Source: Patescibacteria group bacterium
GTDB lineage: Bacteria > Patescibacteriota > Doudnabacteria > UBA920
Assembly: GCA_013387205.1 (NCBI GenBank)
Contig: WARV01000011.1
Coordinates: forward strand, 1 to 56,570
Direction of reading: 5' to 3'
Length of the DNA stretch: 56,570 nucleotides
Shown: piece after piece, positions 5,113 to 55,400 of the stretch
How the letters are laid out: each line of letters begins with the position of its first letter
Numbering within the stretch: position 1 is the stretch's first letter
Position numbers and translations under genes: made by a program
The notes under the pieces: generated by a model
Databases searched by the model: none
Seen by the model: only the letters and a program-made list of their open reading frames with translations
What the model was told of the DNA's origin: nothing

Positions 5113-5904
5113 ATGGATATACAAGAACTAGTTGCCAGGGCACGTATAATCTTCAAGGGTTCTTCTAAGAGACCTAGGATTTTTAGCTTGGTAAATGGAA
5201 AGAGGTCGGCTAAAGAAATAGCACGCAAAGGTGGGTTCACGTTTGTATCCGCTCTGCAAGAATTACAAAAAATGAAAGATCTAGAGCTTGTTTATCCACG
5301 CAAAGATACGGACGGCAATCATCTGAAGAAAGATAATTCAGTGGTGTATGAAAAAGCCCCACTTCTTAAACATCTTCCCCCCTCTTATTTCTCTGAACCC
5401 ACAAAGCTGCCTATAGTGAGAAAGATTAAAAGTCAGAAAAGTAAAACTAAAAATAATTCAGCAACAGTTACTGTTCCAACAGAACAACGGATATTAGATA
5501 TATGCAATCACGGGGAAGATCAGCTATATGAATTCAAAGAGGCTGGCGTAGAAATGTCAAAATTATCAAAAGAAATAAGCGCTTTTGCTAATACTGAATT
5601 AGGGGGAATAATTTTTTATGGCATAGAGGATGACGGCTCCATAGGGGGCTCGGACAAAACACGCCAAACAATAGATCAATCATTACGCAATAGTATAAGA
5701 AACTCTATTTCTCCTTCTCTAAGTGTAAAGATCGTCGAAAAAGACGTCCTTGGTCATAAAATCATACTCATAGTTGTTCCTCCATGGAATAGAAAAGACG
5801 TATATCAATATGAAGGACGAATATATCTTAGAGATGGAACCAATGTATTTGTTGCAAAACCAGAAGAAGTAAGAAAGTTACACCTGGGTCAACCAGTAAG
5901 ATAA
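5113..5904 (+). CDS. N-terminal wHTH fused to an AlbA_2 (Schlafen-like) domain
   Basis: GKRSAKEIARK..SALQELQKMKDLELV HTH; GEDQLYEFKE...KEISAFANTELGGIIFYGIEDDG is the AlbA_2 signature. Confidence 0.85.
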   Translation: MDIQELVARARIIFKGSSKRPRIFSLVNGKRSAKEIARKGGFTFVSALQELQKMKDLELVYPRKDTDGNHLKKDNSVVYEKAPLLKHLPPSYFSEPTKLPIVRKIKSQKSKTKNNSATVTVPTEQRILDICNHGEDQLYEFKEAGVEMSKLSKEISAFANTELGGIIFYGIEDDGSIGGSDKTRQTIDQSLRNSIRNSISPSLSVKIVEKDVLGHKIILIVVPPWNRKDVYQYEGRIYLRDGTNVFVAKPEEVRKLHLGQPVR

Positions 5905-5906
5905 CA

Positions 5907-6740
5907 ATGAACAATACAACACTTCACAATCTTTTTGAGCGTTTACGAGTAGAGTTGAGGATAACAAAGCCGAAAACCTTACGAAAAAAAATTCAAAGGG
6001 AAGCTTCAAAACTAGGTCTTACCACTGATGAAGCGCTGTTTATATTGGCGAAAGAAAATGGTATAGGTTATCAAAGAGAATTTAGAAAATTGAAGCCTGA
6101 ATCCAGACAGTCCATAACCGATGCTATTAGAGAATATAGTTCAAACAGTTCCAATATCACAAATACCGCAAAGGCAAAAGCACCTTCTTTTCGTGGGAAA
6201 AATAGAACAACTACGATCAAAACTAAATTTGGTAGTATCACAGAACCTTATCTTCCTCATACGATTAACCAAGAAGCAGTTGATATGGCTGAGCAAGCTT
6301 ATTTAAGTTTGTATATATTAGAAAATTCAGTAAGGAGTTTTGTTCTAACTGTAATGAAGAAGAATTACGGAGAAGATTGGTGGAAACATAAAATGGGAAC
6401 AAAAAAATTAAAAGATATTGCTGCCAAGGTTACTGACAGACAAAAAACAGAAGAAAAAAATCGATGGCATGGCAAAAGGGGTGCTCACCCAATCTACTAT
6501 AGTGATTTTGGCGACTTATCTGTAATTATAGAAACCTATTGTTCTAATTTCCGTCCTTACTTCTCAAATTTGAAATATAAAGAGTCTTCGTTATTGCTAA
6601 AGTTAGCAGAAATAGAACCTTCTAGAAATGTTACAGCTCATCACAATCCACTAAAAAATAACGACTTGAATAGGGTTCATGGCTACTTAATAGACTGGGT
6701 AAGCCAGTTAGAATATATAAAAGACAACTATATCTTATAA
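5907..6740 (+). CDS. Swt1-like HEPN domain protein (predicted RNase) with N-terminal helical extension
   Basis: LYILENSVRSFV..YGEDWW..YSDFGDL..SRNVTAHHNP, including the RxxxxH HEPN motif. Confidence 0.85.
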   Translation: MNNTTLHNLFERLRVELRITKPKTLRKKIQREASKLGLTTDEALFILAKENGIGYQREFRKLKPESRQSITDAIREYSSNSSNITNTAKAKAPSFRGKNRTTTIKTKFGSITEPYLPHTINQEAVDMAEQAYLSLYILENSVRSFVLTVMKKNYGEDWWKHKMGTKKLKDIAAKVTDRQKTEEKNRWHGKRGAHPIYYSDFGDLSVIIETYCSNFRPYFSNLKYKESSLLLKLAEIEPSRNVTAHHNPLKNNDLNRVHGYLIDWVSQLEYIKDNYIL

Positions 6741-8486: not shown

Positions 8487-8771
8487 ATTATCTCCTTTCT
8501 TTAATTGAGCTGGTCTCAAATGAGTTTTGAGACCAGCGTATTATATGTTTTGACGCAAAAATTTTCCGCGACTTATAAAATAATTATACCATTAAATGGA
8601 CATATATCAACATTATTTAAACGCCTGTTGGATAAGGCTGAGTATTTCGCAAGGCCGGGGGATAACAACCTATAAATAATATGCAGAAGTTAAAACAATA
8701 TTGATTAATAATTAACCCAGCATTTAATTCCTATTTTATGGAGATGTGATATAATTAAATTATAATTTAAG

Positions 8772-8920
8772 TGCCTAAACCCGAAGCTTCTTGGCTCGGG
8801 CATGGCATAAAAACCATTTGCACATAGAGACGGTCATCCGTCTTGTCTGACTGTGCAAATGGTTGTCGCTCGAAAGGGTGGCAGGTCCGCAAGGGCCAGG
8901 GCAAGCGGGTGGCCCTTTTT
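8772..8920 (+). ncRNA. Candidate structured leader RNA, copy 1
   Basis: GCCTAAAC..GCATGGC stem, 13-bp P2 with inner hairpin, GAAA and GCAA tetraloop hairpins, terminal hairpin plus U5. Homologous to 17612-17772 and 17988-18128 with compensatory changes. Confidence 0.75.
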
Positions 8921-8988: not shown

Positions 8989-10968
8989 ATGCTAAGAAAC
9001 AAAAAATATTTTCTCTCTTTGTTTATAGCTGTTGTTTTAATAGCAACCAGCATTAGTACAGCTTACGCCTTGCCTTATGCTCCAGGAGAAACTTTGGATC
9101 CAACGTGTCATCCCGGCGATGCCAACTGTAATGTTATTATTCCATCCTTTACCGTTGGTGGTGATTTGTCCGGTACCAGTAAAGCCCAAACCGTTATTGG
9201 TCTGCAAGGTAATCCGGTCTCTTCTTCTACCCCTGCCTCCAACCAGGTCTTAGCCTGGAATGGTTCAGCCTGGGCTCCGGCTAACCCAGCTAGCGGCAGC
9301 CAGTGGAGTAACGTTTCAGGAGGAATTTCTTATAACTCTGGTAACGTGACGATCGACACTACGGTACTTCCGCATGGCGTTCCGGTGTCGGTTAAAGCCT
9401 CTCGGTTTGGCGCGGCGGGAGACGCACGGCAGGTCACAGACGGCGCGATTAACGTCGGCACGAACAATAAGCTACTCACCTCCGCAACGGCGGCGTTCGC
9501 GGCATCGGACATAGGCAAGACTATCGTGATTACCGGAGCGGGTGCGGCTGGTGCGAATCTGTCCACTACCATAACCTCTGTCATCAGTTCAACCAGTGTG
9601 ATGTTGACCGTCGCCGCGTCTATGACCGTGAGCGGCGCAACCGTGGTACTCGGCACTGATGACACCGCAGCCATTAATTCAGCCATCTCGTACTTGCAAA
9701 CCGTAAATCGCGGGTCGTTGTATTTCCCTTCCGGCCAATACCTCATCACAGGAGAGGGCTTAAATTTGGACCGTATACAATCGCAGGGTGTTCAGTTATC
9801 GGGAGACGGCCCTGGTCGTTCTGTTATATACGTCACCGGCAGCATCGGCCTTAATTTCCTGGGGACAAATGAGATGGCTGTGCGTGATCTTGGGATCGGG
9901 GGAGTCAATGCCGGGGTAGGTGTTCTGCTTGGCCGTTATACTGACGATCACACTAACGGGCAGGGCCGCTTTGAGAATGTGCATGTCAACGGTACGTTCA
10001 GGACAGCCGCTGTCTATAACATCTCCGCTGAAAGCGTGATCTGGTCGAATGTGTGGATTCAGAACTGGGCACCGGCCAGAGGCTTTTACACTAGCTCGAC
10101 GAACGACCTCAACGTTACACTTTCGCGGGGCACGATCGACACGGTTACTGATGTGCAGAACACGTTTATCGGGTCACACATCCAGACTTGTGCGATGGAT
10201 GCTGCCAGCACGGCAGTGGAGGTTCACGGGAACGTCTCCGTATTTGGCATGTTTAATAGCTATATCGGGACGAACGGAAAAGGCTTCTACCGGAGTGCAT
10301 CCGATACGAACGAGTATTCCGGAACTGTCAATATCATCGGCGGAGGAATTGAGAATTGTGTGGCGAACGGCGTTTCGACGGTGTATTGGCCAGTCTATTT
10401 CGATGGGGATAAATTCGATCACGTCACGATCCAAGGGTTGTCCATTTACCAGACCAGTATCAGCTCGCCGCATCCCGGAATCTATCAGGCAGATGGAGGA
10501 GAGATTGACGGCTCATCGTTCCTCAATATTTATACCGAAGGTACCGGAGGGGGTCCGAGTTTCTACAATCTCAGACATTCGACGGTACAGACTCTTTATC
10601 CGCTTGCCATTCGCCATGACGCCTACAACAACAACTTGAGCGCGTATTCGATCACGATTTCCGGAACGGACATTGGGTTCAACATCAAGAAGGCGTTTTC
10701 GCCGGGTTCGATGGCGATATCTGGCGCGGTGAACATCGACACCGTATCTGCGACAACGTTCATCGGCAAGCGCAGCGCGGGGACCCCCAATTACCCAGAC
10801 ATCTACGGAGGTGCAGTGGGAATTTGTCTAGCCAACGCCGCAACCCATGAGACTCAAATCTGCCTACAGCAAGGGAAGCTTATTATGACGGGTATTCCGA
10901 CCTCTTCTGCTGGCTTGACCAGCGGAATGGTGTGGAACAATGGCGGCGTATTGACCGTGGTTCCATAG
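8989..10968 (+). CDS. Secreted protein: conserved N-terminal module plus beta-helix (pectate lyase 3/tailspike-like) domain
   Basis: Signal peptide; shared PYAPGETLDPxCHPGDxNC module; FGAAGD...DDTAAINSAI...LYFPSGQYLI beta-helix cap motif. Confidence 0.8.
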   Translation: MLRNKKYFLSLFIAVVLIATSISTAYALPYAPGETLDPTCHPGDANCNVIIPSFTVGGDLSGTSKAQTVIGLQGNPVSSSTPASNQVLAWNGSAWAPANPASGSQWSNVSGGISYNSGNVTIDTTVLPHGVPVSVKASRFGAAGDARQVTDGAINVGTNNKLLTSATAAFAASDIGKTIVITGAGAAGANLSTTITSVISSTSVMLTVAASMTVSGATVVLGTDDTAAINSAISYLQTVNRGSLYFPSGQYLITGEGLNLDRIQSQGVQLSGDGPGRSVIYVTGSIGLNFLGTNEMAVRDLGIGGVNAGVGVLLGRYTDDHTNGQGRFENVHVNGTFRTAAVYNISAESVIWSNVWIQNWAPARGFYTSSTNDLNVTLSRGTIDTVTDVQNTFIGSHIQTCAMDAASTAVEVHGNVSVFGMFNSYIGTNGKGFYRSASDTNEYSGTVNIIGGGIENCVANGVSTVYWPVYFDGDKFDHVTIQGLSIYQTSISSPHPGIYQADGGEIDGSSFLNIYTEGTGGGPSFYNLRHSTVQTLYPLAIRHDAYNNNLSAYSITISGTDIGFNIKKAFSPGSMAISGAVNIDTVSATTFIGKRSAGTPNYPDIYGGAVGICLANAATHETQICLQQGKLIMTGIPTSSAGLTSGMVWNNGGVLTVVP

Positions 10969-11289
10969 GTACCGTAGTTATGTTATTACAACACCAACCC
11001 CAAACATAATTCCCAAACCAAAACTATGTTAGTTCGAGGGTTTCCCTCGTTGTAGCAAGAATGTGAGAATGTTAACGTAAAAATTAACGGCTAAAACGCC
11101 CAATTTCTGGGATTTAGCCGTTTATTTTTTGATTATTCCAATCGTTTCTGGTTGTTTTTGAATTTAGCACCTTGGTTGTCTAATTAAAAACTAGCTTGCT
11201 GTTTCTATTCTATGCAGGTGTGATATAATTTAATTACAATTTATGTACCAGTGTTCATGAAATAAAATTAGTTTAATGAATACAATATA

Positions 11290-12996
11290 ATGAGAAACAA
11301 AAAATACCTTCTCTCCTTACTTGCAGCTACCGTTTTGATGGTAATTAGCTTTGGCACAGCTCATGCCTTGCCCTATGCTCCAGGAGAAACTTTAGATCCT
11401 ACCTGTCATCCTGGAGATAGTAACTGCAATGTTATTATTCCATCCTTTACTCCTGGCGGGGATTTGTCTGGCACCAGCACATCTCAAACTGTCATTGGCT
11501 TGCAGGGAAACCCTATCTCTACCACTACTCCCACTTCAAATCAAATCCTTCAATGGAATGGTTCGGCTTGGGCCCCAGCAACTTCCACCAGTAGCCAGTG
11601 GACTACTAGTGGCAATGATATCTCTTACAATTTGGGGAACGTTAATGTCTGCAATACGATATCTAGCACGCCAGGCTACTTATGGTCTAATGCTAACCAG
11701 TGTGTAGAGGGGACAGTTGATAACGGCATTACTCGCGTATTCAAGACGCGCCCTGCCGCTGAGTCTAAACGCATTGTGATTATAGGGTCGTCCACTGCTG
11801 CCGGTACCGGAGCAAGCGATTATGCACATTCTTGGGCAGGGTTATTCACTGCGGCAATGACCGCGAAGGGTTATACAGTTTTTAATGTTTCAATTCCAGG
11901 CGACTGGTCTGGACAGCAGCATGACCGATTTTATAAAGACGTGGCCCCGCTCCTGCCGGATTTTGTGATTGACGCTCAATCCTTGCTTAACGATAATTTT
12001 TTTATTTCTAATGCCAGCGGAGGATACGACACGCACACAGCAGCTGTTCGCGCGTTTATCAAGATGGTCGAGGGTATTGGGGCTATTCCGGTGGTGATTG
12101 GCCAGTATCCAAATAATAATTTTACCGCAGAACATGTTTCTTATATAAAATCGCTCTATCAGGAATGGGAAAAGCTTGGGGTGCAAACCTGGGACTTTTG
12201 GGGTAATACCGCTGATGCGAACGGACACTATATTAATGGATTGACCGTTGATGGTGCTCATCCAACCAATGCAGGCCATCAAGCAATGTTTGATGCTATT
12301 CCACTTACGTATTTCGATGCTGCGTATACCAAGCACTCTAGTGAAACCCCTCTTGGGGCGGGCGTGTGGGTGGTGAACGGATCTGCCTTGCGGCCCATTG
12401 AAGTTGATTTGCCGTCTCCGGCTAGCTCGTGGAGTTACGCGTACTGGGCTCGAAACACTCTGGGAGGCACTAACCTTGCATGGAGCGGTATTACGCAAAA
12501 TCTTGTAAGAGTCAAGAATTCAGGGACCTCACCGAACAATTATTGGGCACTCTCTGATAATGTTGGAGATGCTGTACTTTCAACAGTTAATGGCGCAGAT
12601 AATACGTGGCATCATATTGCCGTAACATATAAAGCTCCAACCAACACGTTAACATTTTATGTGGACGGGGTTTCTATCGGAACTACTACAAGAGATACTT
12701 TAAGTAATCAAAGCCGCTTCGCCTTCGGTGGCAGAGATGATACGGCATTGAATGCTAATGGCGGACAATTAGCGCACATCGCGGTTTACCGAAGCTGTTT
12801 AGAGCCTGACGATATCGTGTCTCTCGCCAGTGGAAATATTGTTCGTAAGAGTTTGGAGGCATATCTGCCGCTTTCAACTGCTCCTGCCCCGGCTGCCTAT
12901 GTATTAAATATGGCTGATACTACCACCCGAGCCAAAGTCAATGGCAGCGTTACATCTGTCATTGTAAAAGCGGGAAGTACAATCTTGGCGCCGTAA
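11290..12996 (+). CDS. Secreted protein: conserved N-terminal module plus SGNH hydrolase plus LamG/concanavalin-like domain
   Basis: IVIIGSSTAAG, SLLND and DGAHPTNAGH (SGNH blocks); WHHIAVTY..LTFYVDGV (LamG). Confidence 0.85.
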   Translation: MRNKKYLLSLLAATVLMVISFGTAHALPYAPGETLDPTCHPGDSNCNVIIPSFTPGGDLSGTSTSQTVIGLQGNPISTTTPTSNQILQWNGSAWAPATSTSSQWTTSGNDISYNLGNVNVCNTISSTPGYLWSNANQCVEGTVDNGITRVFKTRPAAESKRIVIIGSSTAAGTGASDYAHSWAGLFTAAMTAKGYTVFNVSIPGDWSGQQHDRFYKDVAPLLPDFVIDAQSLLNDNFFISNASGGYDTHTAAVRAFIKMVEGIGAIPVVIGQYPNNNFTAEHVSYIKSLYQEWEKLGVQTWDFWGNTADANGHYINGLTVDGAHPTNAGHQAMFDAIPLTYFDAAYTKHSSETPLGAGVWVVNGSALRPIEVDLPSPASSWSYAYWARNTLGGTNLAWSGITQNLVRVKNSGTSPNNYWALSDNVGDAVLSTVNGADNTWHHIAVTYKAPTNTLTFYVDGVSIGTTTRDTLSNQSRFAFGGRDDTALNANGGQLAHIAVYRSCLEPDDIVSLASGNIVRKSLEAYLPLSTAPAPAAYVLNMADTTTRAKVNGSVTSVIVKAGSTILAP

Positions 12997-13071
12997 TCGT
13001 ATGGTATACTGTGTTATTTACCTAATGATCGAAATAACATGAAAGCAAAATAATTTAAACAATATCATATA

Positions 13072-14673
13072 ATGAAAAACAAAAAACACTTTTTCTCCTT
13101 GTTTGTAGCTGTTGTTTTGATGGCAACCAGCGTTAGTACAGCTTACGCCGTGCCTTATGCTCCGGGAGAAACTTTGGATCCTGCCTGTCATCCCGGTGAT
13201 GCTAACTGTAATGTTATTATCCCTTCTTTTACTGCTGGCGGAGATCTTGCAGGGACTAGCACTAATCAAACCGTCATTGGCTTGCAGGGGAACCCTGTCT
13301 CTTCCACTACCCCTGCCTCCAACCAGGTCCTGTCCTGGAACGGCTCGGCCTGGGCTCCGGCTAACCCGGCTAGTGGTAGTCAGTGGGCGACTTCTGGAAA
13401 TGATATTTCCTATAACTCGGGGAATGTAACGGTGGGGACTACGTTACAAGTCGATGGCCAGCTAACCAAGTCGGTGTGGCGGAAGTACGGTCAGGTGTTT
13501 GCATCTGCCGCTGAGCCGAGTGTGCTGTACGAGCAAAATGCACGTCTACTCGCTGTACCGGTCGCAACCAGTGTATTTAAGGCGTGGTACGACTGCACCC
13601 TCGGAACCTGCTACGCCGAAAGTCTGACTGCGCTGCCGGGAAGTTGGACAGTACAATCAACCCCGGCCCTTACTGGGTATCAACGCACGGTGGTGCGTCA
13701 TTACGGTTCACTGTATTACTTTTTCGGGTGTCGCATAGGAGATATGGGACACATCGACGTTTTCACGTCTGCTGATGGCACACGTTTCACACTGGCGCAA
13801 GCAAACATTATCACCACAGGTACTGCCGGCGCGTGGGACAGTCTTCAAATTTCGACTGGCACCGTTGATTACGATGGGACTACGTGGCGGACGCTGTATC
13901 AGGGAAAACCTGCGGGCGGTGTGTGGCAAATGGGGCTTGCCACTGCTACTTCGGCGACGGGACCATGGACGAAGTACGCTAGCAATCCCGTGTTCAAGAC
14001 TTCTGACGGTCCAGGTGGAATGGTCGGCGGTGGAACATCTCATTACAAGGATTTATCCGGCAATATCTGGATTTGGCCGCACTCATCTACGATAGGCGAT
14101 CTGCCCACCGACATTTACCGTTACACCTCAACCGACTGGATCCATTGGACCCGCAACCCGTTGCGGCCTGTGCTACAGCGCAGCGCAATTATTGAGGGCG
14201 CTGGATTATCGCAGGGCCAAGTAGCTGACTCGTCGTTGGTGGAAGCTAACGGCAAAACGTACATGTTCCACTCGACCATTCAAAACCAATCATCAGGTCC
14301 GTTTGGCGTCTCATTGGAGATAGCGCCCATGCCATTGGCACAGCTTGTGACCACTGACGAGGGTAGTCATGCTTACGTGGCTCCTGAGCAGGGTGTATCC
14401 AATTTGGGGATCGTTCCGCAATACGTCATTACGTCTGATGGATCGTTGCAGGATAAGAGTTTCCTAGTGCTTCGTCAGGGTACTTTCAATGTCGATGGGA
14501 ATAGTTTGGTGGTTTTCGGCGGTGCGGCGGTGTCCACTTCTGGGTACACTTGCACAGGCAGTTCCAATGGACCGACCAACGGCTCAATCCGGGTGAGGTA
14601 CGACGGACTAGATCGGTTGACGGTGTTCGGACCGCCCAACGAGGCATACTCGCTCTTGTGTTTCGCACGGTAA
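13072..14673 (+). CDS. Secreted protein: conserved N-terminal module plus five-bladed beta-propeller glycoside hydrolase-like domain
   Basis: AEPSV, FTSADG, GAWD, MGLATA..GPWTKYASNPV and TSTDWIHWTR..PVL repeats typical of GH32/43/130-like propellers. Confidence 0.75.
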   Translation: MKNKKHFFSLFVAVVLMATSVSTAYAVPYAPGETLDPACHPGDANCNVIIPSFTAGGDLAGTSTNQTVIGLQGNPVSSTTPASNQVLSWNGSAWAPANPASGSQWATSGNDISYNSGNVTVGTTLQVDGQLTKSVWRKYGQVFASAAEPSVLYEQNARLLAVPVATSVFKAWYDCTLGTCYAESLTALPGSWTVQSTPALTGYQRTVVRHYGSLYYFFGCRIGDMGHIDVFTSADGTRFTLAQANIITTGTAGAWDSLQISTGTVDYDGTTWRTLYQGKPAGGVWQMGLATATSATGPWTKYASNPVFKTSDGPGGMVGGGTSHYKDLSGNIWIWPHSSTIGDLPTDIYRYTSTDWIHWTRNPLRPVLQRSAIIEGAGLSQGQVADSSLVEANGKTYMFHSTIQNQSSGPFGVSLEIAPMPLAQLVTTDEGSHAYVAPEQGVSNLGIVPQYVITSDGSLQDKSFLVLRQGTFNVDGNSLVVFGGAAVSTSGYTCTGSSNGPTNGSIRVRYDGLDRLTVFGPPNEAYSLLCFAR

Positions 14674-14726: not shown

Positions 14727-15917
14727 ATGATAAAATCACTTCGTTTAAAAATATTCATCAGCCTGGCGATTATTGCCCTAACCCCGCTTTCTGCTTTTGC
14801 CTCCACTGGCACTATTGACTCTACTAACAAGTACGCCTGGGGAGAGAAGTTGGGCTGGGTGAATTTTAACCCGACTAATGGTAGTGTCCAGGTTACGGAT
14901 AGCGGGATAACAGGTAACATTTGGAGCGCTAATTACGGCTGGATTAACTTAAGTCCAGCTAATGGCGGGGTGAAGAATGACGGGCATGGTAATCTCTCTG
15001 ACATGGCCTGGGGCAGTAATATTGGCTGGGTTGATTTTAGCGGAGTCAAAATTAACAGCAATGGCGTATTTAGTGGTACGTCTACGACTGATTCTTTAGG
15101 TAGCTTGACCTTTGATTGCGCTAACTGTAAGGTGTCTACTTCCTGGCGGCCCACTGTAGCTAGTTCTGGTGGGGGAGTAGTATACCCATCCATTTACCAG
15201 GTTACAGTTGCTACTACTACGGCCACTTCTGCTTTAATTACCTGGAGGACAGACTACAACACCACAGCTACAGTGGTTTATGGTACTTCCACTGCCTACG
15301 GTTTGTCTAAAGTTGACCAGACCGCTGCTACTACTCATTCTCTACTTATAGACAACCTTACCCCTGCCGCTTCCTACCAGTTCCGGGTCAAAGCTGTTTT
15401 AAACGGTATCACCACCACTTCCAGCAACTATGCCTTTACCACGTTGGCTAATCCTGTTGTTAGCATCACACCAACGGTTACTCCTGTTTCTACCCCGACT
15501 ACAACAGAAAATCAGCAGGCTAACAACAATTTGTCTTATCCCTCCGGTACTTTAGTTTCAGATAGAGGTGCGATTTATTTGATTATTGGCCAAACCAAAC
15601 TGGGCTTTGCCTCTATGAAAGCCTTTACAGGTTTGGGTTATTCGTTAAAGAACGTGGTTAAAGGCAATGCTTCTGCTTACAGTTTGTCCAAAACCATACT
15701 AAAATCTGCCACCCAGGCACATCCGGACGGCTCCTGGATTATTTCCGGCAAGGTGGTATTTTACGTTTCTGCTTCCGGATATATTCCCGTGCCTTCCTGG
15801 GACATATTTCTCTCTAACGGCGGCAAGGCCCAATACATTGTCAAAGCCAACCGCGCTGACCTTAAAGACAAACGGCCGATTGCTTCTCCAATGACTGCTA
15901 ATGATAACAGGCTGTAA
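14727..15917 (+). CDS. Secreted surface protein with AW..xGWI repeats, fibronectin-III domain and conserved C-terminal domain
   Basis: YAWGEKLGWV, IWSANYGWI and AWGSNIGWV repeats; ALITWRTD...VVYG...LTPAASYQFRV FN3 pattern. C-terminus is homologous to that of 27298-29376. Confidence 0.8.
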   Translation: MIKSLRLKIFISLAIIALTPLSAFASTGTIDSTNKYAWGEKLGWVNFNPTNGSVQVTDSGITGNIWSANYGWINLSPANGGVKNDGHGNLSDMAWGSNIGWVDFSGVKINSNGVFSGTSTTDSLGSLTFDCANCKVSTSWRPTVASSGGGVVYPSIYQVTVATTTATSALITWRTDYNTTATVVYGTSTAYGLSKVDQTAATTHSLLIDNLTPAASYQFRVKAVLNGITTTSSNYAFTTLANPVVSITPTVTPVSTPTTTENQQANNNLSYPSGTLVSDRGAIYLIIGQTKLGFASMKAFTGLGYSLKNVVKGNASAYSLSKTILKSATQAHPDGSWIISGKVVFYVSASGYIPVPSWDIFLSNGGKAQYIVKANRADLKDKRPIASPMTANDNRL

Positions 15918-16848: not shown

Positions 16849-16883
16849 ACGAGGGTTCCCCTCGGGCCGAGGGGAACCCTCGT
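16849..16883. repeat. REP doublet upstream of the Y1 transposase
   Basis: Palindrome ACGAGGGTTCCCCTCGG-G-CCGAGGGGAACCCTCGT; related copies at 17542-17560, 18391-18440 and 11036-11050. Confidence 0.8.
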
Positions 16884-16905: not shown

Positions 16906-17526
16906 ATGAAAAATCGCGATTATAAAATATTCCGCAAGGGTGAATATTACCACATATTCAACCGAGGTAATAACAAAGACCCAATATTCTTAGACGACCA
17001 GGATTATTTGAATTATTTAAAAAGGATTAAGCTGGTTTTAAATATCGGCTCTTTAAGCGGCAAGCCTGCGGCCTCGGTCACCCGAATACGTCCGTTACCG
17101 AACGATGCTTTTTCTATTGTTTCTTACATACTGGTTCCAAACCATTTCCATTTCATTATAAAGCAGAATACAGATTTAGGAATTGATAAATTTATGCTTA
17201 AGCTTACTACCAGCTATGCCTCGTACTTTAATAAAAAGTACAATCATATTGGAAACGTATTTCAAGATGCATTTAAAGCCAAGTTAATAAATAACGACTC
17301 CTATTTATTGTCTCTTACCGCGTATGTTCATAATAATGTTAGTAATCCTATGGAATATCCGTATTCTAGCTTTTTAGATATAATTGACAAGCGGAATGGA
17401 GAAGTTTGTAAAAAAGACATTATTTTAAAGTGGTTTGATGGAGACCCGGAAAAATATAAAAATTTTGTTTTGAATTTTGCTGACAAAGATTCGCAAAACA
17501 TCCAGCACTTGATATTGGAAGATTGA
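16906..17526 (+). mobile_element. REP-associated tyrosine (Y1/HUH) transposase, TnpA-REP/RAYT-like
   Basis: YYHIFNRGNNK, PNHFHF (HUH), FQDAFKAKLI and YVHNN motifs; flanked by REP palindromes. Confidence 0.88.
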
Positions 17527-17611
17527 CCAACGGGGCTGGTTAACGAGGGGAACCCTCGTTCCTCGCTACAACGAAAAACTAAAACATGATATAATTCCAA
17601 TACAATTGAAT

Positions 17612-17772
17612 TGCCTAAACCTTGGCTTTTAACGAAACCAAGGCATGGCTCAAAAACCATACCTACACAGAGACGGTCATCCGTCTTGCTTCCTGTAGGT
17701 ATGGTCATCGCTCGAAAGGGTGATGGGGTGGGTGCGTAAGTGCCCATCCGGCAAGCGCGGGTGGCCCTTTTT
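17612..17772 (+). ncRNA. Candidate structured leader RNA, copy 2
   Basis: Same architecture as copy 1. P2 is ACCATACCTACA/TGTAGGTATGGT, with GAAA and GTAA tetraloop hairpins and a GGGTGGCCCTTTTT end. Preceded by TGATATAAT. Confidence 0.75.
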
Positions 17773-17987: not shown

Positions 17988-18128
17988 TGCCTAAACCCGT
18001 GGGCTAAGCTCCGGGCATGGCGCTAAAACCAACATAGATAAAGAACCCTCATCGGGGTTCTATGTTGGTCGTATGGGGAAACCCATGCGTTCGGCCCGAA
18101 AGGGTCGAGCTCCCGATGGGGGCTTTTT
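17988..18128 (+). ncRNA. Candidate structured leader RNA, copy 3 (divergent)
   Basis: GCCTAAACCCG..CGGGCATGGC; P2 ACCAACATAGA/TCTATGTTGGT; two GAAA hairpins; GCTCCCGATGGGGGCTTTTT end. Confidence 0.72.
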
Positions 18129-25277: not shown

Positions 25278-26518
25278 ATGTCTAATCCTTTTGAATCCGC
25301 CAGGCGCCAGCTTGACGAAGCGGCAAAAATTGCCGGGCTCGACAGCCAAAAAATCGAGAGGTTAAAATCTCCAGACCGTTATGTGGAAGTTTCTATTCCC
25401 GTTATAATGGATGACGCCAGCCAAAAAATATTTACGGGGTTTAGAAGCCAGCACAATAACGCCCGCGGCCCTTACAAGGGCGGCATAAGGTTTCATCAGC
25501 AGGTTAATTTAGACGAGGTTAGGGCTTTAAGCTTTTGGATGAGCTTTAAAAACGCGGTGGTCAACGTGCCTTTTGGCGGCGGCAAAGGAGGGGTTGTTGT
25601 AAATCCCAAAGAGCTGTCGCAAAACGAGCTGGAAAAATTAAGCCGCGGTTACGTGCAGAAAATTTACCCCGTCATAGGGCCGGAGGTTGATGTGCCTGCT
25701 CCGGATGTAAATACCAACGGGCAAATTATGTCCTGGATGCTGGATGAATATATTAAGTTATCCCTTGATGGTCACCATCAAGGGAGGCTGCTGGCAACCT
25801 TTACCGGCAAGCCTTTGGATAACGGCGGGAGCCAGGGCAGGGAAGAGGCAACTGGTTTTGGCGGCACCAGGGTTTTAAGAGAAGCGTTAAAAGCCAAGCT
25901 TGCAGATATTCCAGAAGGAGCCAGTATTGCTATTCAAGGGTTTGGCAATGTGGCGACATTTTTTGCGGAAACCGCCAAAGAATTGGACTGAAAGTTGTGG
26001 CAGTTTCTGACAGCAAAGGCGGGATATATAATCCCGAAGGGCTTGATATCAAAACCGTACAGAGCCAAAAAAAGCAAACTAAGTCAGTAAAAGGTTTTTC
26101 CGGCGCAAAAGACATCACTAATGAAGAACTTTTGGAATTGCCGGTTGATATTCTAGTCCCCGCCGCTTTAGAAAACGTGTTGACCGGAGAAAACGCGGAG
26201 AAAATTAAAGCAAAATTAATTGTGGAAATGGCCAATGGCCCGACTACGCCGGAAGCAGATGAAATTTTTGCCAAAAAAGGCATTGTGCTGATTCCGGACA
26301 TTTTGGCTAACAGCGGAGGGGTTTGTACTTCGTATTTTGAATGGTACCAGAACATGCATCAAGAAAGCTGGAGCCGCGACCAGGTTTTGGAAAAATTAGA
26401 CAAGCAAATGGTTCAGGCGTTTAGTGACGTGTTGGAAATTAAGAATAAATTCAACACCACTTTCCGCAACGCCGCGTATATTCTGGCCGCACAAAGAATT
26501 ATCAGCGCGATGAAATAA
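25278..26518 (+). pseudogene. gdhA: Glu/Leu/Phe/Val dehydrogenase (glutamate dehydrogenase) split by a single-base frameshift
   Basis: GPYKGGIRF, GGGKGG, PAPDV and QGFGNV in ORF1; EMANGP and PDILANSGGV in ORF2. Adding one G at TTGGACTG (~25986) restores KELGLKVVAVSDS. Confidence 0.85.
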
Positions 26519-26608: not shown

Positions 26609-27121
26609 ATGCACGACGTAATTATAATTGGCTGCGGGCCGGCAGGAATGAGTGCTGCAATTTATGCGGCCGCAAACAAATTAAAAACTTTAGTTATAGC
26701 CAAGGAGTTGCCGGACAGGAAAGGCGATGATTTTGAAATTGTCGGACAAACTGAAATCGCACAGAAATTCCAAAAGGCCTTAAAGGACTATCCGAAGACT
26801 TTGGAGTTAAAGGATAAAACCGAGGTGGTGACGCTTGAAAAGAATGTTGTCAGTTTTTCGGTGGAATTGGCATCCGGACTAATTTTTTACGGCAAGACAG
26901 TAATTATCGCCAGCGGAAAAGAGTCTTCAAGTTTTGACATGCTGACAAACAAGGATGCGCACGATAATATAAAGGCAGATGTTAATATGAATACAAGTAT
27001 TCCGGGAATTTTTGCCGTAGGTGATTGTATTGGAGAAGAGAGTAAAGGTGTTCTGGTTTGCGCCGGCGAAGGCGCAAAAGCCGCGCTTTCTGCTTTGAAA
27101 TACCTAAGACGGGATCAGTAA
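26609..27121 (+). CDS. Short TrxB-like FAD-binding protein lacking the NADPH/CxxC domain
   Basis: DVIIIGCGPAG, IIASG and TSIPGIFAVGD within only 170 aa. Confidence 0.75.
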   Translation: MHDVIIIGCGPAGMSAAIYAAANKLKTLVIAKELPDRKGDDFEIVGQTEIAQKFQKALKDYPKTLELKDKTEVVTLEKNVVSFSVELASGLIFYGKTVIIASGKESSSFDMLTNKDAHDNIKADVNMNTSIPGIFAVGDCIGEESKGVLVCAGEGAKAALSALKYLRRDQ

Positions 27122-52431: not shown

Positions 52432-55400
52432 ATGAAAGTAAATGTCATATACCAGCAGCCGCCGGAAAAGATAAAAAAAACTCCGCTAAAAACTAAGACT
52501 TACAAAGATGCGGGTAGCCAAGAAATCGGCCTGGTAGATTATCTACCTGGGCCGGATTTGGAATTTGAAAAAAACTTGCCGCATACTGTTTTGGCTGAAC
52601 ACGAAACTGCGGCAAAAATTTTGACCAAAGGCCAAAAGGTTTTAATATTGGCCGCCGGCGTGACTTTAACTGCGGCTTTGATTGTAAATTGGCATGCCGT
52701 AGTTTTCAGCCTGCTGGCGGCGTTTACGATAATATATTTTTTCGATTTGGTTTTCAGTATGGTTTTGGTTTTCCAAAGTTTTAAGGCCGGCCAGGAAATT
52801 ACAATCTCTGAATCGGAAAAAAATACAGCGCCGATTGGCGGCTGGCCGCTTTACACCGTATTTTGTCCCTTGTACCACGAATGGCAGGTGGCGCCGCAGT
52901 TCGTTAGAGCCATGCAGGCTTTGGATTATCCTAAAGACAAATTGGAAATATTTTTATTGCTCGAAGAAGATGATGAGGAGACTGTAAATAAAATCGGCGA
53001 ATTGCAGCTGCCCGAAAACATTAAAGCCATTGTTGTTCCCCATTCTTTGCCCAAGACCAAGCCCAAAGCTTTGAATTACGGCTTGCGTTTTGCCCGCGGA
53101 GAATTTACGGTCGTTTATGACGCCGAAGACGTTCCTGATTCCGACCAACTCAAGAAGGCTGTGACGGCTTTTGCCAAATCTTCGGACAATACCATTTGCG
53201 TCCAGGCCAAACTGAATTTTTATAACCCGCGGCAAAACCTGTTGACCAAAATTTTTACCGCCGAATACAGTTTGTGGTTCGATTTAATTTTGCCCGGACT
53301 GCAGGCGCTTTTTGCGCCTATCCCTTTGGGCGGGACGTCCAACCATTTTCGGACCAGCGCCATAAAACAAATTGGGGGCTGGGACGGTTACAATGTCACC
53401 GAAGACTGCGATTTGGGGATTAGGATTTCCAAAAAAGGCTATCAGACCAGGATAATGGATTCGACCACCTGGGAAGAAGCTAATTCCCAATTCGGCAACT
53501 GGTACCGGCAGCGCAGCCGCTGGGTTAAAGGCTACATGCAGACTTACCTGGTCCATATGAGGCAATGGAAAGAATTTATTTCAAGCGGCAGGCGCCGCAA
53601 TCTTTTCTTTTTCCAGCTGACCGTGGGCGGAAAAGTTATTTCCATGTTCGTGAATCCTTTCATGTGGCTGTTCACCATCGCGTATTTTTCGTTCCGGCCG
53701 CAGGTTGGGCCGATTATCGAATCTTTTTTTCCAAGCCCTTTGCTTTACATGGGAGTGTTTTCGTTCGTTTTCGGCAACTTTTTTTATTTATACAATTACA
53801 TGATCGGGCTTGCCAAGCGGGAATTTGACGGGCTTATTAAATACGTTTTTTTCGTGCCGCTGTATTGGCTGGGCATGAGTTTAGCCGCATGGAAAGCTTT
53901 ATACGAATTGGTTATTAAACCCCATTACTGGGCTAAAACCAAACACGGTTTGCATTTACAGAAGCAGTCAAAGCCCCAAAAGATTCAAGAAGAAAAGCAA
54001 AAGCTAAATATGTGGCCGGGTTTGAAAAATGCCTGGCAGGCTGTTAAAACAAATTTGTTTGCTTTCAGCGGAAGTTTTTTGGTAGGCGCGGTTATTGCTT
54101 CGGATTTTACCAATTTTTTGTTTACTGTCATGCTAGGCAGGTTTTTGAGCTTGGAAGAATTTGGTGTGATTGTCCTGTTTAACAACTTCATGCTGTATTT
54201 GGCAATTATCACTTCCGCTTTGGCCGCTACCGTCAATCACCGGGTGGCTTTTCTTACTGCCAAAGGGACTGCTTTAGGAGGCAGTGTCTTTCGTGTCGCG
54301 ACAAAAAAGAAAGCACTGGCCGCGGCTTTGGGTTTCACTTTACTGTGGCTTTTAAGCTCCACTTTACTTGCCGCCTTTTTCAATGTACCCAATGTGTATT
54401 TGGCTTGGCTGTTTTCGCCCGTGGCGGTTTTCGGGTTTATGGCAGCCACTGACCGCGGGTTTTTGCTTGGCACATCCAGTTTTATTAAAGCAGGTACTGT
54501 GCTTTTGGCCGAATCCGTGGTGAAATTTTTAGTGTCTGGAATTTTAATCTTGCTTGGTTTGCAAATGTGGGTGGCGGCGTCTTTGCCCGTATCTTTAGGA
54601 TTCGCTTTCCTGTTGACTTGGTATTTGGCCCGCGTAGCCGAAAAGCAATCTGGCAAAGAAAACACGCTGGCCGTAAACAAACAGGATGCCAAGCGCTTTC
54701 CGCGCAGGTTTTTTACCGCAGCTGTTTTAACCGGCTTGTCTTCAACTGCGTTTTTGAGCCTGGATGTCATTTTGGCCAAACATTTTTTGGGAGTTTCCGA
54801 AGCCGGGCAGTATGCCTTGCTGTCTCTCATTGGAAAAATGGTTTTTTATTTCGGTTCGCTGCTTAGCGTGTTTATTATCACCTTTACCAGCCAGGATGAA
54901 GGGGCAAACAGGAATCCGAACCATAGATTCTATAAAATTTTAAAATGGACTTTGCTTCTTGTCGGCTTGGCCTGGGTGCCTCTGGGCCTTCTTGGTAAAT
55001 TCACCGCGCCATTGATTTTTGGCGCCAAAGCCGCAAACCTTGGCCCCCTTTTGCCGCTTTATACCGCGGGCGCCGCGCTTTATGCCATAGCTAACGCTTT
55101 TGTGGTTTATCATTTGGCCCGCAAGCACCTACTGTTCTCTTTTGTCTCTCTTTTCAGCGTGGCGCTTTTGGCCATAGGGATATTTAAATACCACGATTCT
55201 ATTGCCAGTCTCGCCCACGTGCTGTTTGCGGTTTCTTTGGTAAATTTGATTTTAATGGGCCTGCTTCATCTGCTGCAGCGCAACGGCCGGTTTATTGTCA
55301 GGAACCTGGTTGATTTGGTTGACGCGTTTTTCCCTTTAGCCCAGCCCCGTGCGGCCTTAGGAGGTAAAAGGATTTTAGTTTTCAACTGGCGCGACACCAA

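Follow-up and report, generated by a model that had tools for sequence, protein, structure and literature searches.

A Patescibacteria locus of three tandem genes combining a common, predicted trimeric N-terminal module with unrelated enzyme-like heads

Arrangement of the locus

The window analysed here is the whole of a 56,570-nucleotide stretch of DNA (contig WARV01000011.1) from a Patescibacteria group bacterium. It contains three adjacent genes, g1, g2 and g3, followed directly by a fourth, g4, and several putative regulatory elements:

8728..8775, plus strand: promoter-like box with an extended -10 (TGTGATATAAT), read from the sequence
8772..8897, plus strand: LOOT RNA (RF03000) in the g1 leader; Rfam, 79.1 bits against a gathering threshold of 46.4, E 5e-14, model positions 1-121 of 121
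8893-8915: hairpin after the LOOT RNA, then a T run to 8920
8989..10968, plus strand: g1, 659 aa; signal peptide 8989-9069, stalk 9070-9363; head (9364-10965) a putative beta-helix of pectin-lyase-like type
11079..11129, plus strand: terminator-like element downstream of g1, a hairpin plus T run (I8, an inverted repeat with 17-nt arms, 94% complementary)
11202-11249: second copy of the promoter-like box, upstream of g2 (direct repeat D2, 83% identical)
11290..12996, plus strand: g2, 568 aa; signal peptide 11290-11367, stalk 11368-11658; head with an SGNH/GDSL esterase (~11767-12300) and a LamG-like domain (~12421-12816), then a C-terminal tail
13072..14673, plus strand: g3, 533 aa; signal peptide 13072-13149, stalk 13150-13443; head a five-bladed beta-propeller (~13471-14364), then a C-terminal ~100 aa
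14727..15917, plus strand: g4, 396 aa, with a signal peptide; directly after g3

The open reading frames of g1, g2 and g3 lie exactly where the original prediction had placed them, all on the plus strand, and the four genes stand in tandem with gaps of 321, 75 and 53 nt (g1-g2, g2-g3 and g3-g4, respectively). The flanks carry housekeeping and defence-type genes, with one IS200-like and one RNase H-like gene just downstream. Contigs compared with the stretch were at least 99% identical in 44 of 46 pieces and free of insertions and deletions; the sequencing runs that contain it are three DNA runs from one soil study, with no RNA run listed. A small contig in X2 links position 14781 back to 13147, with 49 letters on the shorter side; its junction may be an assembly artefact or derive from a paralog of a relative, and it was not used as evidence. 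The LOOT RNA is present in five copies in the genome, each preceded by a -10-like box and followed by a hairpin/T run, with a gene downstream; a literature search on this RNA listed one incidental mention. Scanning g1-g4 against NCBIfam returned no family name.

A common N-terminal module

The three proteins share an N-terminus and then part abruptly, as had been predicted: in the alignment they are near-identical to about residue 125, with nothing in common after it. By BLASTP the N-terminal parts are 68-81% identical (E 3e-60 to 1e-77), and no pair of heads does better than E 1.7, so that the likeness of the N-terminal parts is far beyond chance. The order of parts is common to all three: a Sec-type signal peptide (AxA cleavage site), then, as the first residues of the mature protein, a 23-residue Cys-loop (PYAPGxTLDPxCxPGxxNCxV, hereafter the N-cap), a single fibre repeat, a connector (SQW...ISYNxGNVxVGTT) that joins repeat to head, and the head itself. 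The mature stalk of 98 residues is 75% and 85% identical between g1 and the two other proteins.

These stalks are old paralogs under purifying selection, with pairwise dS values of 1.10-1.91 and dN/dS ratios of 0.094-0.116. Because their synonymous divergence is near saturation, the arrangement is old and does not reflect active capture; recent gene conversion of the stalks was rejected on dS values above 1.

A profile search with the stalk matched 5183 cluster representatives at E<=1e-3. In 148 listed proteins besides g1 and g3, 3 to 34 stretches each match the stalk profile, mostly over its positions 25-77, and the ~50 residues at the centre of the stalk thus appear, from sequence, to be a single unit of a very widespread fibre repeat. 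In one of the proteins found (P0062), the stalk profile and Pfam DUF5907 (83.8 bits) cover identical residues. DUF5907 (PF19264) did not match the three stalks even at E<=10, a level at which Pfam gave sub-threshold chance matches only; a literature search found no paper on DUF5907, and a PDB profile search with the stalk found no solved structure alike by sequence. The connector and repeat also precede related heads in other proteins. As these are generic fibre parts, the lineage-specific constant part is the signal peptide plus the N-cap, not the whole stalk.

A compositional contrast had also been proposed, with the heads of g1 and g3 richer in GC and in CG-containing codons than the stalks; its direction is correct, but it is weaker than proposed. 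Third-position GC content is lower in the stalk than in the head of g1 (0.43 vs 0.62) and g3 (0.47 vs 0.57), with g2 at 0.40 vs 0.42. Measured against 264 other long open reading frames of the genome, only the difference in g1 is significant, at the 0.8% tail, with g3 at 8.7% and g2 at 34%. The break seen for g1 is gradual, since GC3 rises from codon 1 with no step at YNxGNV. In CpG content it is the stalks and not the heads that deviate (observed/expected 0.76, 0.26 and 0.58 vs a genome mean of 1.02).

Three unrelated heads

The assignment of the heads to a probable beta-helix (g1), an SGNH esterase with a LamG domain (g2) and a GH43-like propeller (g3) holds. Residues 117-374 of g1 match phrog_32881, 'pectin lyase activity' (E 2.3e-26), and precomputed annotation places PF12708 and/or PF13229 in 6 of 28 relatives of the g1 head; Pfam gave no match on g1 itself at E<=0.01. 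The AlphaFold2 model of g1 has a mean pLDDT of 54 and is confident only for mature residues 105-245, and a Foldseek search with this poor model returned nothing at E<=0.001, the top weak rows being phage proteins, which we take as a lead only.

The g2 head is assigned by Lipase_GDSL_2 (PF13472, 45.5 bits vs a Pfam gathering cut-off of 32.9) and, over residues 378-509, by Laminin_G_3 (PF13385, 48.9 bits vs 27.6). Residues G43/S44/S45, D198 and H201 (head numbering), which from known SGNH motifs we take to be catalytic, are invariant in all six aligned g2-type heads.

The g3 model is a five-bladed propeller with pLDDT above 90 across most of mature residues 108-405. Foldseek with this model retrieved GH137, GH43, GH117 and GH130 structures (E 2e-10 to 1e-7, TM on target 0.5-0.64); since the five-bladed fold is common to all four, the head is placed in a fold class and not in one family. 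In Pfam, GH43 (PF04616) scored 18.1 bits on g3, below its cut-off of 32.2. Seven acidic positions are kept in at least 77% of 30-31 relatives. A polymorphic-toxin reading was rejected, Pfam having identified no toxin or immunity domain in proteins whose heads are of CAZyme type.

A constant front with variable heads is therefore real at this locus. The further proposal that the heads are captured foreign domains stands in part: full-length orthologs were not found in 94 other genomes of the same family, a search of 300 sampled genomes of the phylum did not find the heads or gave only weak partial matches to them, and the best relatives of each head family carry quite different N-termini, but the age of the stalks speaks against capture as an active process. 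A phage derivation of the heads is unproven. Viral contigs hold 154 relatives of the initial ~120 residues of the g1 head, and the g3-type propeller occurs in a phage structural module, in tailspike position (contig G112), with a 65%-identical copy on a terminase-bearing contig (G111); for the g2 head, in contrast, no relatives were found in viral contigs. Single-protein scans of viral contigs returned nothing with g1 or g3 and weak LamG matches only with g2.

A predicted trimeric stalk

Folded as a monomer, the stalk region reaches a pLDDT of only ~40. Modelled as a homotrimer, the g3 stalk gave ipSAE values of 0.74, 0.76 and 0.74, with 0.00 for the best of three controls, a partner pLDDT of 75 or more, and 83% or more of the contacts common to the runs. 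In the calibration, which was based on two copies and other alignments, 20 of the 30 proteins whose solved form is a pair attained the ipSAE mark, as did 1 of the 23 whose solved form is a single chain; the stalk job used three copies and a 13-row alignment made here. The N-cap lies outside the predicted interface, which comprises residues 26-96 and falls where the stalk is most conserved. The expectation of a trimer was thus supported, by prediction and with controls, and the products of g1, g2 and g3 are probably homotrimeric, judging from this model. We note that the trimeric part spans only ~70 residues, which is short for a fibre that needs to reach beyond the cell wall.

The N-cap and its neighbour gene

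Named Patescibacteria MAGs contain the N-cap at 16 loci, where it begins exported proteins whose lengths range from 332 to more than 1395 aa. These proteins come from distant Patescibacteria and are otherwise unrelated; the N-cap lies at their exact mature N-terminus, including that of chromosomal giant surface proteins of CPR bacteria. Peptidase_S74 was found in 3 of the 12 N-cap proteins scanned, and 4 of 300 sampled genomes of the phylum contain an N-cap. In 2.9 million viral contigs, a first pattern scan confirmed no relatives and a second gave a single stretch (L165) lacking the Cys loop, a chance match. Scanning metagenome contigs yielded 12 loci, only one of them a true relative (L153) and the rest 9-residue pattern matches, and among the stalk-profile matches inspected the N-cap part was matched in none except the window's own proteins. 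A literature search on CPR fibre and tail-fibre-like surface proteins returned no title or abstract start that describes an N-cap family; the Pam pilus, as presented in the excerpt of its preprint (PMC13278184), is a different system with Ig-like pilins.

Behind its signal peptide, the g4 product has an N-domain of AWGxxxGWxNF repeats (residues 25-147) and an FN3-like domain (158-239); a Pro/Thr linker then leads to the C-terminal domain, which has two paralogs in the genome. An ESM Atlas search with the N-domain was uninformative (scores <=0.76). By tblastn and by comparison of gene neighbourhoods, 8 genomes have a g4-like gene adjoining N-cap genes, at 10 loci in total and in either order (the window; G041, two loci; L024; L030; G296; G179; G382, two loci; G021), a recurrence that is hard to explain without a shared function. 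In the 300-genome sample, 8 genomes have a strong g4-like match, and all 4 N-cap-positive genomes are among them. The pairing is not universal: with the profiles used, a strong g4-like gene occurs without a detected N-cap in G148, G195, G207, G366, G085 and G097, and the complete N-cap genes L031 and L032 have no g4-like gene within 1-3 kb downstream.

Discussion

On balance, we consider it fairly probable that g1-g3 are old paralogs whose products this Patescibacteria (CPR) bacterium exports as tailspike-like enzymes, each a homotrimer mounted via the N-cap. In such a model, the common 5' module would have been duplicated and the heads swapped long ago by recombination in or near the generic connector. 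Repeat and connector would wind three chains together, and the N-cap would stay free and plug the three enzymes into one common surface partner, for which the g4 product is the candidate. Held on that partner, the heads would bind, de-esterify and cut glycans of the surface or matrix of another cell. An epibiont lifestyle, with host polysaccharide as the target, may be envisaged, as the original prediction did.

It is tempting to go a step further and to speculate that the N-cap and the g4-type protein form an undescribed plug-and-socket display system scattered across Patescibacteria, in which any N-cap trimeric fibre, be it a giant adhesin or a compact enzyme, would dock on cell-bound g4, and in which heads from other bacteria or phages would be mounted by recombination in the connector. 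The LOOT RNA and its terminator could then be a cis-acting switch that times deployment of the toolkit. This wider scheme is put forward tentatively, and we think it rather less likely to be right than not.

Somewhat more doubtful still is a simpler account in which g1-g3 are freely secreted scavenging enzymes, the module a lineage-specific leader for export and trimerisation that docks on nothing, and g4 an unrelated surface protein. The signal peptides do look cleavable, no lipobox, LPXTG or C-terminal membrane helix was recognised in g1-g3, the heads have standard CAZyme-type folds, and g2-type heads elsewhere sit behind plain signal peptides, with the N-cap absent. What this account struggles with is the retention of the N-cap at the exact mature N-terminus of otherwise unrelated proteins in distant Patescibacteria, the strong purifying selection on the stalk, and the adjacency of g4-like and N-cap genes at so many loci in both orders.

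Tandem genes on one strand with short gaps, and stalks that are 75-85% identical with their interface residues in the most conserved part, could also be read as a sign that g1, g2 and g3 chains mix, giving one short fibre with two or three heads (lyase-like, esterase and glycosidase-like) as a multi-enzyme tool. We regard this as improbable, given that g1 and g2 each have their own promoter-like box, that a terminator-like hairpin follows g1, and that beta-helix tailspike heads are themselves usually homotrimeric. That the locus represents what is left of a prophage or phage-tail-like particle with g1-g3 as its tailspikes, as the phage contigs bearing g1 and g3 head families, the g3-like heads in a phage structural module and the nearby IS200-like and RNase H-like genes might suggest, is very improbable in view of the Sec signal peptides on all three proteins, flanks lacking phage structural, packaging and lysis genes, the want of any true N-cap match in viral contigs, its place at the head of chromosomal giant CPR surface proteins, and stalks that are old paralogs under selection.

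The locus offers three expressible candidates with predictable activities: a putative beta-helix resembling lyases or hydrolases, an esterase coupled to a lectin-like domain, and a glycosidase-like propeller head. All three have one presumed mounting module in common, and a candidate socket gene adjoins them. The N-cap is a short, searchable motif by which such proteins can be sought in other CPR genomes. The locus bears on the ways in which the surfaces of other cells are recognised, held and processed by ultra-small CPR bacteria; the identification and binding of hosts by these bacteria is described as largely unknown in the abstract of PMC12206443.

Relation to known systems

Similar in build are bacterial surface proteins with DUF5907-type repeats ('tail fibre domain'), some of which end in Peptidase_S74 or LamG: the centre of the stalk would be one such repeat unit, and similar heads are found among them, a beta-helix-like one in P0010 and LamG in P0027. 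They differ in having 3-34 repeat units as opposed to the single one in the window proteins. In working, though with no relation of sequence or fold being claimed, the locus would resemble the dockerin-cohesin arrangement of cellulosomes, in which different glycan-active enzymes carry one small docking module for a common surface scaffold, if the docking reading is right; the module here is, by contrast, N-terminal and trimer-linked, and its docking is a conjecture.

Phage tailspikes and depolymerases likewise combine a constant N-terminal part with enzymatic heads that vary and form trimers, as is predicted here, and SGNH-type and probably also beta-helix heads are common to both; the beta-helix tailspikes phi297 gp61 and LKA1 gp49 and the endosialidases gave weak structural matches only. 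Esterase tailspikes are also described for Schitoviridae, in the excerpt of PMC11654681. What sets the window proteins apart from tailspikes is their Sec signal peptides, the lack of phage genes in their chromosomal surroundings and an N-cap with no true match in viral contigs, and the combination of a phage structural module with a virion-attachment N-terminus is absent from the locus.

Finally, the mosaic adhesive trimer (MAT) fibres of Bdellovibrio bacteriovorus are, going by the excerpted text of Caulton et al. 2024 (PMC10769870), likewise an exported multi-paralog family with a constant N-module after the signal peptide, a trimeric shaft (a predicted trimer here) and swappable C-terminal domains. 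Some members of the wider family terminate in Peptidase_S74, a domain carried here by 3 of the 12 N-cap proteins scanned. Their N-terminal domain is proposed in that text to bind an element of the cell's own surface that is not identified there, whereas here a conserved partner gene, g4, provides a candidate. The MAT N-domain is beta-rich and ~130 aa long and the shafts are ~1000 aa, compared with a 23-residue N-cap plus one repeat in a 98-residue stalk, and none of the window proteins has a beta-prism shaft of such length. The MAT structures solved so far cover C-terminal fragments, and the tips are binding folds (beta-sandwich, TNF-like, C-type lectin), in contrast to the enzyme folds of g1-g3. 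The locus may be seen as the constant base with swappable tips familiar from phages and Bdellovibrio, in a minimal form and with enzymes as the tips.

A common front end on three adjacent genes

The original prediction had placed three adjacent genes at 8989..14673, sharing an N-terminus and then switching abruptly to unrelated C-termini, and both claims were borne out. Three same-strand ORFs occupy exactly these coordinates, and their alignment is near-invariant to about residue 125 and unalignable beyond it.

8989–10968, + strand: g1, ORF of 659 aa (probable beta-helix head)
11290–12996, + strand: g2, ORF of 568 aa (SGNH esterase and LamG head)
13072–14673, + strand: g3, ORF of 533 aa (GH43-like propeller head)

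By BLASTP the N-terminal parts match one another at 68–81% identity (E 3e-60 to 1e-77); the best match between heads has an E of only 1.7. Each protein opens with a signal peptide, assigned by eye from its basic n-region, hydrophobic core and AxA site (AYA|LP, AHA|LP and AYA|VP), and each start codon is preceded by a conserved stretch of ~45 nt. The mature stalks are 98, 97 and 98 residues long in g1, g2 and g3, with 75% (g2) and 85% (g3) identity to that of g1, and these are the only copies in the genome (1.30 Mb, 24 contigs, 98.3% complete). As nucleotide sequences the stalks share only 71–77% identity. With a dS of 1.10–1.91 and a dN/dS of 0.094–0.116 they are old paralogs under strong purifying selection, neither recent duplicates nor copies homogenised by conversion.

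In a small contig of run X2 (depth 8), position 14781 is joined to 13147, so that the beginning of the next gene (g4) is linked back to that of the g3 stalk; the shorter side of the join has 49 letters, and three variant letters lie at 13179–13185. This could be a repeat-caused assembly artefact or an extra paralog in a related strain.

The N-cap and its distribution

The mature proteins open with an N-cap, PYAPGETLDPxCHPGDxNCNV, which contains two cysteines. With one genome scanned for each prokaryote species, 20 loci were returned, of which 16 are convincing (L019–L034). Fifteen of these 16 lie in MAGs labelled Candidatus Doudnabacteria, Paceibacterota, Paceibacteria, Minisyncoccia or Patescibacteria group, and one (L028) in a MAG labelled uncultured Gammaproteobacteria. 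In the MAG loci the ORFs are 332 to >1395 aa long and open with a hydrophobic leader, behind which the N-cap sits. Positions Y2, P4, G5, T7, L8, P10, C12, P14 and C19 are invariant across 17 aligned sequences, and Peptidase_S74, the chaperone that checks trimers in tail fibres, was found in 3 of 12 scanned N-cap proteins.

Among 300 sampled other genomes of the phylum, four have the N-cap, in ORFs of up to 2862 aa. Of 94 other genomes in the family, four were matched by the A3 profile at E<=1e-3: G041 and G021 matched its N-cap part, G010 and G062 the repeat or connector only, and the whole stalk was found in none of the four. The proteins of G041 are the same as those at loci labelled Candidatus Doudnabacteria, which puts the family of the window's genome within the CPR. 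A first pattern scan of 2.9 million viral contigs confirmed no N-cap relative; the single stretch from a second such scan lacks the Cys loop and was rejected. On this distribution the N-cap is a feature of Patescibacteria.

The N-cap genes and g4-like gene of G041 are in pieces, for example of 84+316 aa and 102+106+248 aa (L017, G041:C32, 4210–6520; L018, G041:C16, 1895–4113), and these may be either real pseudogenes or frameshift errors in a MAG that is 76% complete.

A widespread repeat and its predicted trimer

Directly after the N-cap comes PSFTxGGDLxGTxxxQTVIGLQGNPVSxxxPxxNQVLxWNGSAWAP, a single copy of a repeat that occurs very widely. A profile built from the stalks of g1–g3 matched 5183 cluster representatives at E<=1e-3, and 1445 at E<=1e-10, among 1.84 billion proteins; a majority of the 1522 local domain matches cover profile positions 25–77, and among the proteins listed, 148 besides g1 and g3 are each matched in 3 to 34 stretches. 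Of 26 repeat-bearing proteins searched against Pfam, 16 have a weak DUF6087 match and three a DUF5907 match; one ends in Peptidase_S74 and another in Laminin_G_3. The best DUF5907 match (relative protein P0062, 83.8 bits) falls on the very residues matched by the stalk profile; DUF5907 gave no score on the stalks of g1–g3 themselves.

The stalk closes with a connector, SQWxTSGxxISYNxGNVxVGTT, whose motif also occurs in giant fibre-like proteins of the relative G010. Because head homology extends into the connector in some relatives, and because another relative, P0185, has a partial GGDLxGT repeat ahead of its propeller, the connector is a generic joint common to many fibre proteins. It is also a plausible site of head exchange, although that heads are exchanged there is something that we infer.

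Modelled singly, the stalk had a pLDDT of ~40 in each of two AlphaFold2 runs. When the g3 stalk was modelled in three copies, with a 13-row alignment of its own, the ipSAE values were 0.74, 0.76 and 0.74 (best of three controls, 0.00); partner pLDDT was 75 or more, and the runs shared no fewer than 83% of their contacts. In the calibration of the method the mark was reached by 20 out of 30 proteins whose solved structure is a pair and by 1 of 23 whose solved structure is a single chain, counts that apply only roughly to a calculation with three copies and its own alignment. The confident interface of the predicted trimer spans residues 26–96, the repeat and connector, and leaves the N-cap outside. 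No solved structure resembling the stalk by sequence was found, so that recall of a known structure by the predictor is not an obvious explanation of the score, though a possible one.

The heads

The g2 head has Pfam matches to Lipase_GDSL_2 (45.5 bits; cut-off 32.9) and Laminin_G_3 (48.9 bits; cut-off 27.6). Six aligned g2-type heads all keep G-S-S, D and H, residues that fit the SGNH Ser...Asp-x-x-His pattern. Seven proteins share the SGNH and LamG unit at 38–52% identity; six of them open with a short hydrophobic leader and none has the N-cap.

Residues 117–374 of g1 match phrog_32881, 'pectin lyase activity', at E 2.3e-26. The g1 head has 28 relatives, the best at 52% identity across 23% of the head, and PF12708 and/or PF13229 are found in six of them; the model is confident at mature residues 105–245 only. 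The last ~25 residues of g1, PTSSAGLTSGMVWNNGGVLTVVP (window 10894–10965), recur at the C-terminus of P0151 and of no other among the 28, a small terminal motif shared by these two proteins.

The g3 head was modelled as a five-bladed propeller, for which Foldseek returned BT_0996 (E 2e-10) as well as GH43, GH117 and GH130 structures. Seven acidic positions are conserved, and the score against Pfam GH43 was under the cut-off. Four relatives (P0179–P0182) share the head at 57–64% identity and differ from g3 in their N-termini and C-terminal extensions.

Head homology begins at residues 123–166 in g1 (133–141 in 22 of 27 relatives), at 101–144 in g2 (190 for one N-terminally truncated relative) and at 108–135 in g3 (closest relatives).

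Are the heads foreign?

It had been suggested that the heads are possibly phage-derived, and that those of g1 and g3 are richer in GC and CG than their stalks. The compositional claim held in part. The genome has a GC of 43.0% and a GC3 of 0.477 +/- 0.074 (822 ORFs), and the g1 and g3 heads are indeed higher, with GC of 0.537 and 0.542 (~99th percentile) and GC3 of 0.617 and 0.571. However, RNase J, SSB and like housekeeping genes reach the same level; a stalk-to-head GC3 difference as low is found in 0.8% (g1), 8.7% (g3) and 34% (g2) of 264 control ORFs, so that only g1 is extreme; and the GC3 climb is gradual, beginning at codon 1. The CpG oddity lies in the stalks (0.76, 0.26 and 0.58 in g1–g3), not in the heads.

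A foreign origin of the heads is plausible. A sample of 300 genomes of the phylum yielded no g1 head, three weak partial matches to the g3 head and 13 such matches to the g2 head, mainly to its LamG part within giant ORFs. Of the three heads only that of g1 had a match among 50,697 phage records, in Burkholderia phage BcepMigl alone, with 47% identity over its opening 130 residues. A search of IMG/VR gave 154 relatives of that g1 module, about 30–60% identical to it, as well as 17 loci for the g3 head and none for the g2 head. The closest viral-contig relative of g3 (65% over 300 residues) forms the C-terminal end of a protein of at least 1516 aa that has a hydrophobic leader; its gene lies at one end of a 22.7-kb contig on which a terminase large subunit (E 3e-13) is also encoded. 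Since a 349-aa ORF, read by eye as TnpB/IS605 OrfB-type, lies beside it, this relative could be host DNA next to a prophage. Another g3 relative (44%, 751 aa) lies within a clear phage structural module, with a major head protein (E 1e-56) and scaffold, head closure and DNA ejection genes. A phage link is real for the g1 and g3 head families.

A conserved neighbour

The next gene starts 53 nt past g3.

14727–15917: g4, with a signal peptide, N-domain, FN3-like domain, Pro/Thr linker and C-terminal domain, in that order

The N-domain is unannotated and has three AWGxxxGWxNF repeats; the C-terminal domain has two paralogs in the genome. Genes with a g4-like N-domain adjoin N-cap genes on the same strand in G041 (two loci), L024, L030, G296, G179, G382 (two loci) and G021, in all 10 loci in 8 genomes with the window included, and in both gene orders; some of these genomes are kin and so non-independent, and the positives span five different families. 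Strong full-length matches (E<=1e-24) occur in eight genomes of the phylum sample, including all four that have the N-cap, and all four judgeable sites there are adjacent. Of the 16 MAG N-cap loci, four have a g4-like gene; at nine the N-cap ORF extends past the examined DNA, and one more stops at a contig end. At L031 and L032 none was found within 1–3 kb downstream, and six genomes (G148, G195, G207, G366, G085 and G097) have a g4-like gene with no detected N-cap. We regard g4 as a candidate conserved partner of N-cap genes.

The surrounding DNA

The flanks are chromosomal (rsgA, EF-P, SSB, S6, RNase J, uvrA/C), and near the locus lie a Schlafen/AlbA_2 and HEPN pair, an RNase H-like gene and an IS200-like gene. 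Because the module in G041 has different surrounding genes, among them a serine-recombinase-like fragment and one read by eye as metK, the module is conserved but its neighbourhood is not.

Five copies of LOOT RNA (RF03000) were found in the genome.

8772–8897: between a duplicated promoter-like box and g1, 79.1 bits vs 46.4
17612–17748
17988–18107
G000:C24:4388–4504 (another contig of this genome)
G000:C20:65399–65521 (another contig of this genome)

The copy at g1 is followed by a hairpin and T run, and in G041 a copy lies 62 nt upstream of the first N-cap gene (L017:7839–7953). At least four of the five have a TATAAT-like box no more than ~30 nt ahead, four have a GC-rich stretch and T run no more than ~30 nt past them (the C24 copy is less clear), and genes of varied kind begin 17–91 nt downstream. 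This layout looks like that of a riboswitch or attenuator; Rfam classes LOOT as sRNA.

Palindromes of CGAGGGGAACCCTCG (16849–16883 and 17544–17560) flank the IS200-like Y1 transposase gene (16906–17526), and a variant lies at 11035–11051, directly past the g1 stop codon; the arrangement resembles REP/RAYT. The Schlafen/AlbA_2-domain gene (5113–5904) adjoins a Swt1-like HEPN gene (5907–6740); the two lie 2 kb upstream of the locus and are a candidate defence pair. A Glu/Leu/Phe/Val dehydrogenase lies in two adjacent ORFs (25278–25991 and 25997–26518), which suggests a stop or frameshift between them, and is followed by a truncated, 170-aa pyridine-nucleotide disulphide oxidoreductase (26609–27121); pseudogenes and sequencing errors are both possible. 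A 1339-aa ORF (52432–56451) fuses GT2 and GT4 glycosyltransferase domains.

Comparison with known systems

Judged by their context, g1–g3 are not phage tailspikes. No paper that deals with the N-cap family or with its candidate partner came up in our literature searches. Of the systems described, the MAT fibres of Bdellovibrio come closest: a signal peptide and constant N-domain precede a trimeric shaft with swappable tips (PMC10769870). The likeness is one of design: MAT fibres have a long shaft whereas the proteins here do not, and for that reason we do not claim that g1–g3 are members of the family. By analogy they would work like a miniature, enzyme-tipped MAT fibre.
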